Shown: piece by piece, positions 608-4,363 of the stretch
Numbering within the stretch: the first letter of the stretch is position 1
Layout of the letters: each line of letters opens with the position of its first letter
From: an uncultured cyanobacterium
GTDB lineage: Bacteria; Cyanobacteriota; Cyanobacteriia; Cyanobacteriales; CAWCAG01
Assembly (NCBI GenBank): GCA_963793425.1
Contig: CAWCAG010000005.1
Location: 1,312,001 to 1,376,000 of the forward strand
DNA length: 64,000 bases
Direction: 5' to 3'
The notes under the pieces: generated by a model
The model's database searches: none
What the model was told of the DNA's origin: nothing
What the model saw: only the letters and a program-made list of their open reading frames with translations
Position numbers and translations under genes: made by a program

Positions 608-691
608 AAAGTTCTATTTACCAATTAAATCAGCTATTATTAATAGTACAGCTAGGGGCTGTGGCTCAGTTGGATAGAGCAAGCGCCTCCT

Positions 692-1542
692 GAACAATCG
701 GGCCTCTTGGGGGAAACCCTAAGTAGTGAATGCGGTCAAATTCAAGGAAGCCTAAGTCTGGTCAAACAGAGAGGGTAATCTTGAGCCAAGCTTATAATTT
801 GTCGATTCGGCAAGTTATTAAGAAGGTGCAGAGACTGGTTGAATGAGAGCTAAAAATGATGGACTATAATGTCTCATCAAAAGTAGAGCAAAGAGGCATT
901 CTGACCGGGATGTTATTAGGTGCAAGTAGGAGGAATAAACAAAATTTCTACCTCCAACACCTGAATTTGCCAGAGGAATATGTTTTGTTTAAAAAGCAAC
1001 TCCTTGAACAAATCATTCGCAAGCCAGTTAGTCTTCGGGAAGAGAAAAGTAGTAAAGGCGAACCCTTGATACGTTTAGAACCAAAGTTGATTCCTTTAAC
1101 TAGGGTTTTGGTTAAGAGGCTTTATCAAGGAACAACACCTATAATTACAAGTAAGTTCCTGCGTTTTTTAACCCCCCCAGGTATAGCAATTTGGTTTATG
1201 GATAAAGGTTCTAAATCTTTTAAGAAGAAGAACGGCAAGATCCATAGCCTAGAAGTTAACTTCAATACCAATATCTGCCAAGCAGAAAATGAATTGATAG
1301 TAGCTTATTTTGCTGAAGTTTGGGGTTTTAAGTGGGGATTAAGCAAAAGTGGAAAGGCTTACCGTTTAAGGATGGGAACGAAAGAAGGTAAAAGATTTTT
1401 TGATTTTCTTCGTCCCTATATCCATCCCGCTATGCTCTACAAAATAGAAACCTCTTGTCAACATAACGGCCGCCACCTAAAAGAGCTTTTGCTCTGATGG
1501 TGAAGGGATAGTCCAGAGAGTAAGGAAACTTACACAAATCTG
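692..1542 (+). ncRNA. Group I self-splicing intron (IC3-like, bacterial tRNA type), 851 nt
   Basis: 5' exon ends in U and intron ends in G. P1 689-693/698-702 with U691.G700; P2 with GAAA loop 706-723; P3 GCGGTC 732-737 / GGCCGC 1468-1473; P4 TTCAAG/CTTGAG; R element GCAGAGACT 828-836; P8 1474-1502; S element AAGGGATAGTCC 1503-1514; P9 GTAAG-GAAA-CTTAC. Confidence 0.95.
856..1497 (+). CDS. Intron-encoded two-motif LAGLIDADG (LAGLIDADG_2 / I-SceI-like) homing endonuclease or maturase; active sites degenerate
   Basis: Motifs ILTGMLLGAS and LTPPGIAIWFMDKG; C-terminal LRPYIHPAMLYKI typical of the family; very basic protein; lies inside the intron. Confidence 0.85.
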   Translation: MMDYNVSSKVEQRGILTGMLLGASRRNKQNFYLQHLNLPEEYVLFKKQLLEQIIRKPVSLREEKSSKGEPLIRLEPKLIPLTRVLVKRLYQGTTPIITSKFLRFLTPPGIAIWFMDKGSKSFKKKNGKIHSLEVNFNTNICQAENELIVAYFAEVWGFKWGLSKSGKAYRLRMGTKEGKRFFDFLRPYIHPAMLYKIETSCQHNGRHLKELLL

Positions 1543-1591
1543 AAGCGCTAGGTCGCCGGTTCAAATCCGGCCAGTCCCGTTTTTTCAGTGT

Positions 1592-1901: not shown

Positions 1902-3881
1902 TCAGTTAACTTTCAACACTCTAGTAGCATTGAGGATTGCTAAAAGCGCTACCCCTACATCAGCAAATACTGCTTCCCACAGAGTTGCTACCCCAATTGC
2001 TCCTAGCAAAATAAATAGTGCCTTAACTGCCATTGCCAGGATGATGTTTTGCCAAACAATAGAATGAGTTTTACGAGCTATACCTATTGCCTCTGCTACC
2101 TTAGAAGGAGCATCATTCATTAGCACCACATCGGCAGTTTCTATAGCTGCATCAGAACCTAACGCTCCCATTGCTATCCCGACATCTGCTCTCGCAATTA
2201 CCGGTGCATCGTTGATACCATCACCCACGAAAGCTACTTTGCTTTTTTTGTCAGACTGATGAAGATACTGCTCGATTGCTTCTACCTTGTCTTCTGGAAG
2301 CAATTGCGCTTTGTAGGTGTCTAGACCAAGCTTACTGGCAACCCTTCGAGCCACAACTTGGTTATCTCCCGTCAGCATTACAGTTTCGGTGACTCCTGCT
2401 TTTTTCAATCGGGCGATCGCATCTTGAGCATCTTCCTTAATCCTGTCGGAGATTAAGATATAGCCAGCATATTTTCTATCTATTGCTAGATGAACTACCG
2501 TACCTTCAACATTACAAGTATCATGTTCTATCTTTTCTCTGTGTAAGAGGCGATCGTTCCCTGCCAATACTGACATCCCTCTGACTTTAGCACTAATACC
2601 GTGTCCGGGAATTTCTTTATGATCAGCGACATCAGAATCGGTAATAGTAATGTCAGCCGCAGCAATTTGATTGCCGTAAGCTTCAACAATGGATCGCGCC
2701 ACAGGATGATTGGATTGAGATTCGGCGATCGCAGCAATAGTAAGTATTTCTTTTTTCCTATAGCCGTTATAAGCAGTTACTTGAGTAACTTGGAATACAC
2801 CTTCAGTTAACGTTCCAGTTTTATCAAAAATTACCGTTTTAACATTGGTCAAGGCATCGAGAAAAGTCGAACCCTTAACTAAAATACCTCTTTTGGCTGC
2901 ACCACCAACTCCACCAAAGTAACCCAAAGGAATACTAATTACTAATCCGCAGGGACAGGATATAACTAATAATACCAACCCTCGATAAAACCATTGTTCG
3001 CTAGTTGCACCAGGAATGAATAAGGGGGGTAAGATAGCAACTGCTAGAGAGAGAAAAACTACAACGGGAGTGTAGTAACGGGCAAAACGAGTAATAAATT
3101 TCTCTGTTGGAGCTTTTTTACTGCTGGCATTTTCTACCAAGTCCAAAATTTTAGCAATGGAAGATTCGGCAAATATTTTGGTGACTCGAACTTTTAAACT
3201 ACCTGTTTGGTTAATCGCACCTGCTAAGATTGTTTCTCCTTCTCTTACAGTTTGAGGTACGGATTCACCCGTAAGTGCCGAAGTATCAATCTGGGAAGTA
3301 CCTGATAGTATCTCACCATCTAAAGGAACTTTCTCCCCTGGTTTGATCACAATCCTATCTCCAACTTCTACTTTTTCAGGGTTAACTTCTCTTATCACTC
3401 CATCAATAACTAGACTTGCCTTGTCAGGACGTATTTCTAATAGTGACTTAATCGAACGACGTGAGCGCCCCACCGCAAAACCCTGAAACAGTTCTCCAAT
3501 CTGAAAAAACAGCATTACTGCTACCCCTTCGGGTAATTCATGAATTGCGATCGCCCCTAAGGTTGCAATAGTCATCAAAAAGTTCTCATTAAATATTAGA
3601 CCCCGCAAAATATTAGACCCCGCACTGGTTAATACACTCCAACCGCTTATGAAGTAGGCGGGAATTAAAACTGCGTATTCTGCGATCGCACCAGGAGTAT
3701 TATGCAAAGGCTGGTTAAAGATTAATCCAATCAGAAATAGAGCGATCGCAATACTAAGAGGTATTAGTTCTCGACTTAAATTAAACTCACCATGCTCATG
3801 GCTATGATTATGATCCTGATGATGATTTTCATCGGTAGAACAGCAACTAGTGGAATGTTTACCTGACATAATCCAAAACAT
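1902..3881 (-). CDS. ziaA: Zn/Cd-transporting P1B-type ATPase (ZiaA/CadA-like)
   Basis: His/Cys-rich N-terminus, TGES, CPC, DKTGTLT, HP and GDGINDAP motifs; start may be ATG 3869. Confidence 0.9.
   Translation of the reverse strand: MFWIMSGKHSTSCCSTDENHHQDHNHSHEHGEFNLSRELIPLSIAIALFLIGLIFNQPLHNTPGAIAEYAVLIPAYFISGWSVLTSAGSNILRGLIFNENFLMTIATLGAIAIHELPEGVAVMLFFQIGELFQGFAVGRSRRSIKSLLEIRPDKASLVIDGVIREVNPEKVEVGDRIVIKPGEKVPLDGEILSGTSQIDTSALTGESVPQTVREGETILAGAINQTGSLKVRVTKIFAESSIAKILDLVENASSKKAPTEKFITRFARYYTPVVVFLSLAVAILPPLFIPGATSEQWFYRGLVLLVISCPCGLVISIPLGYFGGVGGAAKRGILVKGSTFLDALTNVKTVIFDKTGTLTEGVFQVTQVTAYNGYRKKEILTIAAIAESQSNHPVARSIVEAYGNQIAAADITITDSDVADHKEIPGHGISAKVRGMSVLAGNDRLLHREKIEHDTCNVEGTVVHLAIDRKYAGYILISDRIKEDAQDAIARLKKAGVTETVMLTGDNQVVARRVASKLGLDTYKAQLLPEDKVEAIEQYLHQSDKKSKVAFVGDGINDAPVIARADVGIAMGALGSDAAIETADVVLMNDAPSKVAEAIGIARKTHSIVWQNIILAMAVKALFILLGAIGVATLWEAVFADVGVALLAILNATRVLKVN
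2413..2420. repeat. HIP1 octamer (example; recurrent throughout the window)
   Basis: GCGATCGC occurs many times in and between genes, typical of cyanobacteria. Confidence 0.9.
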
Positions 3882-3967: not shown

Positions 3968-4363
3968 TTAAACTTCGTCTAAGTGTTCGGCTACTTCACG
4001 ATAAAGGTTGGCAATATGCGCGTCTGCCAAGCTGTAATAAACGTTACGCCCCTCACGGCGATGTTTCACTAAGCGGAGGTTTCTGAGCAAACGTAACTGA
4101 TGTGAAACGGCTGATTCACTCATTCTAACTACGGCAGCCAAGTCACAGACACAAAGTTCGGCTTTAGCCAGGGCAGAAAGGAGTTTAAGCCGATGGGGGG
4201 CAGCCATAGCACCAAAAAACTGAGCCATCTGCTGTGCTTTCTCTGTAGTTATGATTTCCGACTGCACTTGACGTACTTGCTCTAAATGAACTAAAGGTGA
4301 ATCACAAGTAAGTATGTCCGATGCTAGAGAGCCTTGTTTTTTTGATTTGTTAACTTTGCTCAT
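3968..4363 (-). CDS. ziaR: ArsR/SmtB-family metal-sensing repressor (ZiaR-like)
   Basis: ELCVCDLA, SESAVSHQLRLLR HTH, alpha5 ligands DAH...EHLDE; directly upstream of the P1B ATPase. Confidence 0.88.
   Translation of the reverse strand: MSKVNKSKKQGSLASDILTCDSPLVHLEQVRQVQSEIITTEKAQQMAQFFGAMAAPHRLKLLSALAKAELCVCDLAAVVRMSESAVSHQLRLLRNLRLVKHRREGRNVYYSLADAHIANLYREVAEHLDEV

Follow-up and report, generated by a model that had tools for sequence, protein, structure and literature searches.

A LAGLIDADG protein lacking both catalytic acids is conserved inside a group I intron of a cyanobacterial tRNA-Arg(CCU) gene

Why should a homing endonuclease gene stay intact inside its intron after both metal-binding residues of its active site have been replaced? 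The question is raised by an open reading frame (ORF) in a stretch of 64,000 nucleotides (nt) from an uncultured cyanobacterium (assembly GCA_963793425.1, contig CAWCAG010000005.1, positions 1,312,001 to 1,376,000 of the forward strand). We refer to this whole stretch as the window and use its coordinates throughout. At 856..1497 (+) it encodes a LAGLIDADG protein within an 851-nt group I intron that splits a tRNA-Arg(CCU) gene. Once its intron has become fixed, a homing endonuclease gene would normally be expected to decay, and escape from this fate through usefulness to the host is documented mainly for fungal mitochondrial maturases. We consider it highly probable that the window protein is nuclease-dead and has been selected for a role other than cleavage. 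For help in splicing as that role, whether as a maturase or as a folding cofactor, we see about an even chance.

The ORF is open throughout and specifies 213 amino acids (aa), of which 23 are Lys and 14 Arg (37/213, 17.4%; isoelectric point 10.0), in agreement with a preliminary description of the locus as an open, Lys/Arg-rich frame. It matches the Pfam profile PF03161 LAGLIDADG_2 over its full length (all 168 profile positions, 1-168), with an E of 3e-29 and a score of 102.5 bits, the cutoff being 25. In such proteins the catalytic metals are coordinated by acidic residues, one at the base of each LAGLIDADG helix (PMC3384342, excerpted text). The same description held that both acids are replaced, and the alignments bear this out. 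Acidic residues at both helix ends, by which an active homing endonuclease is recognized, are absent from the window protein: motif 1 reads GMLLGAS, with A23 (codon 922..924), and motif 2 reads AIWFMDKG, with K117 (codon 1204..1206). K117 stands opposite I-SceI D145 in a phmmer alignment to structure 1r7m and in the profile alignment, and the A23 column stands opposite I-SceI D44 when a 48-sequence family profile is aligned to I-SceI; a single-sequence alignment to 6x1j displaces motif 1 by a few residues, and the profile alignment settles the placement. Two basic residues of I-SceI, K122 and K223, we take to flank the active site. The column of the former holds P95 in the window protein and Lys in 102 of 113 distant homologues with Asp at both catalytic positions (hereafter D/D, motif 1 before motif 2), and the column aligned to the latter keeps a Lys, K196. 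The window protein further carries L36, L38, P39, E69, N139 and A192 in place of residues conserved in D/D relatives. Judged from these residues, it very probably no longer cuts DNA.

As modeled by AlphaFold2 (AF2) with the family alignment, the protein has a LAGLIDADG fold, predicted with high confidence (predicted local distance difference test, pLDDT, 92.6; predicted template modeling score 0.88). The model contains four beta hairpins, places the LAGLIDADG helices at residues 9-21 and 107-117, and has its sole disordered stretch at residues 204-213 (pLDDT < 50). The best Foldseek matches are I-WcaI (6x1j) and I-SceI, with template modeling (TM) scores of 0.74-0.75, and the bI3 maturase (2ab5) ranks seventh. 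Translation probably begins at the second ATG (859, M-D-Y), which is the start conserved among homologues. The final ~13 residues arise by a change of frame relative to the usual stop of the family.

The window protein is one of a large family. A word-indexed search returned 157 homologous proteins, the best 120 of which are 53-87% identical to it. The named homologues among the matches listed come from filamentous cyanobacteria, and the sources call the homologues 'DNA endonuclease' or 'LAGLIDADG endonuclease'; one (P0085) carries the erroneous source label 'ribosomal protein L34'. A related-locus search with the single protein gave only 16 loci, and the counts reported here come from a search of genome samples. 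The search of 401 sampled genomes belonging to the same order gave matches (E <= 1e-20) in 72. The ORF stands at the same tRNA-Arg(CCU) position in 69 of them, and in the other three (G434, G514, G564; 32-33% identity) the match falls in another tRNA gene. When the whole phylum was sampled evenly, only 6 of 401 genomes gave matches. All 85 fetched loci with at least 41% identity occupy the same tRNA-Arg(CCU) site, and the genome of the window holds one copy of the ORF.

Loss of the acids turned out to be the common state of this family in the order. Among the 69 genomes, 48 have no acidic residue at either site, 10 have one Asp, 3 have E/R and only 8 are D/D, seven of these belonging to one genus of family f2 and one to family f60. 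Breaks occur in only two of the 69 ORFs, those of G427 and G435, each of which is split in two; an internal TAA in G162 proved to end the ORF only a little early at its C-terminus, with 199 aa left. Of 128 aligned stretches from more distant homologues (50%-identity cluster representatives) that fill both columns, 117 are D/D, and the A23 column, which holds Asp in all 113 distant D/D-class homologues, varies within the Asp-less clade. One clade, of 65 leaves without Asp at either site and including every row with the A/K state of the window, appears in a quick maximum-likelihood (ML) tree of 126 proteins rooted on five D/D outgroups. The preliminary description had raised conservation of the Asp-to-Ala and Asp-to-Lys changes in homologues; the loss is indeed conserved, and the replacing residues are not. 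The Asp of motif 1 has given way to A, V, Q, N, K, W, T, H, R, C, S or G, and that of motif 2 to K, R, C, L, Q, E or A. The 126-row tree implies 12 losses of Asp at motif 1 and 11 at motif 2, and the two columns underwent 30 and 24 residue changes, compared with a median of 14 per column and 0-6 in neighbouring columns. The ORF tree tracks host families (16 label changes versus a shuffled mean of 43.7), which indicates mainly vertical descent. One D/D homologue, P0119 (53% identical), bears the source label of a Pyrinomonadaceae (Acidobacteriota) metagenome-assembled genome, a label that hints at Asp-bearing relatives outside cyanobacteria.

The Asp-less ORFs are under purifying selection and not in simple decay, a conclusion that we regard as well supported. 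Ratios of non-synonymous to synonymous substitution rates (dN/dS) were estimated pairwise by the Nei-Gojobori method (NG86) within clades, so that pairs inside one clade are non-independent, and lie overall between 0.15 and 0.30 in clades that lack both Asp residues. The Q/R clade has a median of 0.195 (66 pairs), the W/K clade 0.163 (10 pairs), the R/R clade 0.169 at dS ~1 and the x/C clade 0.295; single pairs gave 0.219 (H/R), 0.182 (R/C-C/C), 0.226 (K/K), 0.254 (A/K-T/K) and 0.146 (C/A-S/A). The D/D clade itself has 0.136 (36 pairs), the D/R-D/Q clade, which keeps the motif-1 Asp, 0.285 and the E/R clade, which keeps a motif-1 Glu, 0.080. Between the window copy and that of a congener (87% identical, also A/K), dN/dS is 0.209 by NG86, 0.34 by YN00 and 0.30 by ML, with 34.5 non-synonymous changes on 506 sites and 36.5 synonymous changes on 133 sites (binomial p = 5.9e-9). 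A deficit of non-synonymous changes relative to neutrality was found in all seven double-Asp-less pairs tested, the window pair included (p 3e-4 to 3e-15). The earlier proposal of selection in place of decay is thus upheld by the sharing of the loss across a large clade, by these ratios and by the near-universal retention of the ORF in several families. The opposite picture, of homologues that keep their Asp beside a single neutrally evolving copy, fits neither the 8 D/D genomes of 69 nor the comparison with the congener.

Which columns have been released from constraint in the Asp-less forms? We compared column entropies between 34 D/D and 68 Asp-less close homologues, with the 113 distant D/D homologues as reference, over columns outside 102-105. 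Conserved with Asp and variable without it are the catalytic columns 23 and 117 together with columns 4, 36, 38, 61, 62, 69, 73, 93, 95, 96, 108, 115, 135, 139, 142, 143, 165, 166, 186, 192, 193 and 195. In the distant D/D set Tyr fills column 195 in 111 of 113 homologues, and Gln fills column 39 in 107 of 113; column 39 is also looser in the Asp-less forms and falls below the flagging threshold. Ten of the flagged columns (36, 38, 61, 62, 69, 73, 135, 139, 165 and 166) lie on or next to predicted beta strands. Most remaining columns are equally conserved in both groups: D116, adjoining K117, is invariant, and the invariant saddle residues of the Asp-less clade include N30, R170, L171, R172, G174 and T175. 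Columns 12, 16, 178, 179, 200 and 202 are tighter in the Asp-less forms, an observation of little weight given that the groups are phylogenetically structured. A shift in net charge, considered as a mark of the Asp-less forms, was rejected, the charge being unchanged at +17.4 as against +18.1 in D/D forms. As far as sequence can tell, this pattern is what would be expected from lost cleavage and a partly lost DNA-contact surface, with the fold and other surfaces kept.

The place of the ORF within the intron bears on what the protein might do. The 5' exon of the tRNA gene (655..691, +) ends with U36 of the anticodon CCU; the intron (692..1542, +) follows directly 3' of this third anticodon base, and the 3' exon (1543..1579, +) completes the gene. 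Joined in silico by coordinates, the exons give a 74-nt tRNA-Arg(cct) in ARAGORN with a CCU cloverleaf, and in the unspliced window ARAGORN reports no tRNA. The exon sequence around all 85 homologous ORF loci is likewise that of tRNA-Arg(CCU), with 0-6 mismatches in a Hamming scan. The intron matches Rfam RF00028 (53.2 bits against a gathering score of 50), in an alignment whose 3' half is pushed into the ORF and is incorrect in that part. The ends are those of a group I intron, T691 closing the 5' exon and G1542 the intron, and they are conserved in 71 ORF-bearing and 26 ORF-less loci. A single tRNA-Arg(CCU) gene, the intron-split one, was found in the genome of the window, and no intronless tRNA-Arg(CCU) was found there.

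Comparison with ORF-less introns of 220-296 nt, together with the Rfam alignment, assigns P1-P6 and the 5' strand of P7 to a 5' ribozyme segment (692..855, +; ...GGTGCAGAGACT) and locates the insertion point of the ORF between the P7 5' strand (...GCAGAGACT) and the 3' strand of P3. The P3 5' strand, GCGGTC (732..737, +), pairs with GGCCGC (1468..1473, +), so the final ORF codons sit in P3'; the pairing is backed by covariation, and the ACGGCYACCACCTAA core also occurs in ORF-less introns. P3 has 6/6 pairs in 75 of the 77 introns, ORF-bearing and ORF-less together, that a pattern could parse out of 97 (20 unparsed), with nine fully paired strand combinations, GTGGTC/GGCCAC, GTAGTC/GGCTAC and GCGATC/GGTTGC among them. 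By eye, a P8 hairpin, AGAGC-TTTT-GCTCT (1482..1495, +), follows, and local hairpins of differing sequence stand at the same position in other loci (uncounted). The remaining 3' core (1498..1542, +) consists of J8/7, the P7 3' strand GATAGTCC, the P9 hairpin GTAAG-GAAA-CTTAC and the terminal G, and is near-invariant in every locus (GGTGAAGGGATAGTCC...GTAAGGAAACTTAC...AATCTG). Members of the family usually stop at the TAA of CCTAA, a conserved J3/8 sequence. At this point the window copy is out of the family frame, and it continues to a TGA (1495-1497) that overlaps the 3' strand of P8, and in the congener (L023) the ORF runs to within one base of the 3' exon. With ends as variable as these, the C-terminal tail seems free to vary.

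We also asked how the ORF is distributed relative to its intron and to intronless alleles. The intron-exon junction pattern occurs in 217 of the 401 same-order genomes, about three times the 69 that carry the ORF; this is an upper bound, the scan having allowed one mismatch and admitted a few spurious matches. Thirty junction loci were fetched and comprised 25 ORF-less introns (220-296 nt), 4 introns with an ORF and 1 decayed copy, a 670-nt intron in G606 (L089) whose longest frame is 123 aa; G606 and G553, which has a D/D copy, are of one genus. The ORF-less introns (L091-L102, L106-L118) are a common form in the order and show at least two P4-P6 sequence subtypes. The pattern GTAATCTTGAGCCAAG, tried as a count of the ORF-carrying subtype, was rejected because it matches other loci (206/401 genomes, many other contigs); set against the junction loci, its coordinates reveal ORF-less introns of the same subtype in other families.

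The exact intronless anticodon arm is present in 94 of 341 genomes of the order. It was found in none of those examined from f1 (0/2), f2 (0/20), f17 (0/3) and f53 (0/11), and in f15 only in three genomes of genus g198, two of which also lack the intron junction. In families that are mostly or wholly Asp-less, nearly every genome with the junction has the ORF (f20 19/19, f53 11/11, f15 19/20, f17 3/3, f1 2/2). The families that hold D/D copies are patchy, with 10/27 in f2 and one intact plus one decayed copy among 13 in f60.

How might such a protein have been kept? We propose that an I-SceI-type LAGLIDADG homing endonuclease gene resided in the P7-P3' junction of the tRNA-Arg(CCU) intron, that both metal-binding Asp residues were lost in the ancestor of the large cyanobacterial clade, and that other residues conserved in the Asp-bearing relatives then drifted. 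Purifying selection has nevertheless retained the protein in lineages that have fixed the intron and in which no intronless target turned up. On this proposal the protein may bind its own intron RNA and aid folding as a maturase or RNA chaperone. The ~640-nt ORF parts the strands of P3, and likewise those of P7, and with its final codons it overlaps P3', J3/8 and P8; with this arrangement the catalytic core can form only once the whole ORF has been transcribed and is free of ribosomes. Three considerations favour help in splicing or folding over other non-cleaving roles: the gene was never outside the intron in any locus seen; the ORF separates the strands of P3 and P7 and overlaps P3', J3/8 and P8; and LAGLIDADG maturases devoid of endonuclease activity are an established kind, with precedents given in PMC3384342 (excerpted text). 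A bacterial LAGLIDADG protein that acts in a maturase-like way is reported from Thermotoga (PMC3984707, in part).

Several points weigh against help in splicing. RNA binding and a splicing role are what we infer from sequence and position. The ORF is present in only 69 genomes, to be set beside a junction found in up to 217 of 401, and all 25 ORF-less loci have introns of 220-296 nt, which argues that the ribozyme has no inherent need of a protein. P3 is intact in 75/77 parsed introns, and no decay of the core that would create dependence is visible. The frameshifted copies of G427 and G435 and the decayed one of G606 indicate that loss of the ORF can be survived in some lineages. The conserved beta-sheet residues and the unchanged net charge make continued DNA binding possible, and the invariant D116 beside K117 makes a residual metal site possible. 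Finally, the pairwise dN/dS values within a clade are, as said, non-independent of one another.

The main rival is a DNA-binding or other host role, in which a nuclease-dead, sequence-specific nucleic-acid binder would act as an autorepressor or regulator of the tRNA locus, as I-TevI does for its own gene, or as a host factor like WhiA; we think this unlikely. It would explain the purifying selection as well as splicing help does. The protein has stayed strongly basic (isoelectric point 10.0, net charge +18), many saddle residues are invariant in the Asp-less clade, WhiA structures are among the fold matches, and both WhiA and I-TevI provide precedents (PMC3384342, excerpted text). Against it, the beta-strand columns conserved in D/D forms are relaxed in the Asp-less clade, which fits a loss of the original DNA specificity, and the ancestral target, the exon junction, was not found as DNA in the window genome or in f1, f2, f17 and f53. 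The gene moreover lies inside the intron in all 85 loci seen, its fate tied to that of the intron, a position that speaks for splicing help.

A second alternative is that the protein still works as a nuclease or nickase through other residues and that ongoing homing maintains the ORF. D116 could serve in such a site, the ten genomes with one Asp and the three with a motif-1 Glu could encode nickases, and the intronless alleles in 94/341 genomes of the order are possible targets. Yet the replaced acids are those that coordinate the catalytic metals (PMC3384342, excerpted text), 48/69 genomes have none at either site, and the replacements are chemically diverse. Given also that the I-SceI K122 column is relaxed (Pro in the window), that no targets were found in the lineages concerned beyond the three g198 genomes of f15, and that descent is mainly vertical, continued homing is hard to hold, and we regard it as quite improbable. 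Plain decay of a recently inactivated gene after fixation, the Goddard-Burt cycle, is the expected fate (PMC1995217, excerpted text) and would suit the broken copies of G427, G435 and G606 and the shifted C-terminal frame of the window copy, but for the clade it is contradicted by 67/69 intact ORFs, by dN/dS of 0.15-0.30 at dS up to ~1 with seven of seven pairs significant, and by relaxed columns that coincide with the catalytic positions and the best-conserved D/D columns in place of an even spread, leaving it the most improbable account of all.

A wider proposal we offer tentatively and consider rather doubtful as a whole. In several families of filamentous cyanobacteria, maturation of the sole tRNA with a CCU anticodon might depend on a domesticated, nuclease-dead homing endonuclease encoded in its own intron, a bacterial, chromosomal and vertically inherited partnership; translation of the ORF, the final codons of which overlap P3', J3/8 and P8, might compete with folding of the ribozyme and so tune the supply of tRNA-Arg(CCU). 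A related idea, feedback through an ORF rich in AGG, the codon matching the CCU anticodon of the interrupted tRNA, was rejected as a family trait: across the family AGG makes up only 78 of 1104 Arg codons, and its share is alike in D/D forms (mean 0.072) and Asp-less forms (mean 0.068). In the window ORF itself AGG accounts for 5/14 Arg codons, including a tandem AGG-AGG at codons 25-26 (928-933), and in 18 long window ORFs for 54/456.

A nuclease-inactive, retained LAGLIDADG intron protein is of a known kind, and its setting in a bacterial tRNA gene is unusual. The excerpted text of PMC1995217 lists a single endonuclease gene for the tRNA introns of bacteria, that of I-Ssp6803I in tRNA-fMet, and a LAGLIDADG ORF within the tRNA-Arg(CCU) intron of cyanobacteria is nowhere described in the full-text literature that we searched, most subscription journals and supplements lying outside it. 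A single bacterial order holds a natural series of intronless genes, ORF-less introns, D/D ORFs, half-inactivated ORFs and a large conserved Asp-less clade. The series is unusually clean, and the transition of a selfish nuclease into a retained protein can be tested on it directly. For annotation, the split tRNA gene is one that ARAGORN misses, and the name 'endonuclease' is probably wrong for most homologues.

The three genomes with their match in a different tRNA gene (G564, G434 and G514, all of family f60; loci L086, L087 and L088) carry a 224-aa LAGLIDADG_2-like ORF (~711-1356 in locus coordinates, 31-32% identical) in an apparent group I intron, the exons of which read by eye as tRNA-Asn(GUU). 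Motif 1 has K or E for Asp, motif 2 keeps WYLDDG, and tRNA-Arg(CCU) is intronless in these genomes; L087 has no Rfam match at the gathering threshold. In the window, the three minus-strand ORFs near the intron appear by eye to encode a secreted thioredoxin-like protein (5-607), a 659-aa heavy-metal P-type ATPase (1902-3881) and an ArsR/SmtB-type repressor (3968-4363), and no link to the intron was seen by eye.

Among known systems, WhiA/DUF199 proteins resemble the window protein in being bacterial, in having a LAGLIDADG fold without the acidic and basic catalytic residues and in serving the host (PMC3384342, excerpted text), and they are among its fold matches (TM ~0.5); unlike it, they are free-standing transcription factors with an added helix-turn-helix and are not intron-encoded. 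I-Ssp6803I shares the genomic setting, a homing endonuclease gene in a group I intron in the anticodon loop of the cyanobacterial tRNA-fMet gene (PMC1995217, excerpted text), and is in contrast an active PD-(D/E)XK enzyme of unrelated fold. A Thermotoga LAGLIDADG protein, likewise encoded in a bacterial group I intron, is reported to stabilise and activate its own intron (PMC3984707, in part); that intron lies in an rRNA gene of a hyperthermophile, and the likeness is drawn from the description of the protein. The bI3, bI2 and bI4 maturases and the bifunctional I-AniI are intron-encoded LAGLIDADG proteins kept after their endonuclease was weakened or lost (PMC3384342, PMC2647301, both in part). 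Fold matches of the window protein include the bI3 maturase (2ab5), with a TM of only 0.54, and I-AniI (1p8k). For these fungal mitochondrial maturases RNA binding and splicing are demonstrated, whereas for the window protein we infer them, and the window ORF sits on a bacterial chromosome, where it occupies a small tRNA intron of IC3-like type that also exists in ORF-less copies. Closest in sequence and fold are I-SceI and I-WcaI, of the same Pfam family PF03161 (E 1e-13 with the family profile; TM 0.74-0.75). Both, like the window protein, have their coding sequence inside a group I intron. Where I-SceI has D44, D145 and K122, the window protein has Ala, Lys and Pro, and where the host gene of both enzymes is an organellar rRNA gene, that of the window protein is a bacterial tRNA gene.

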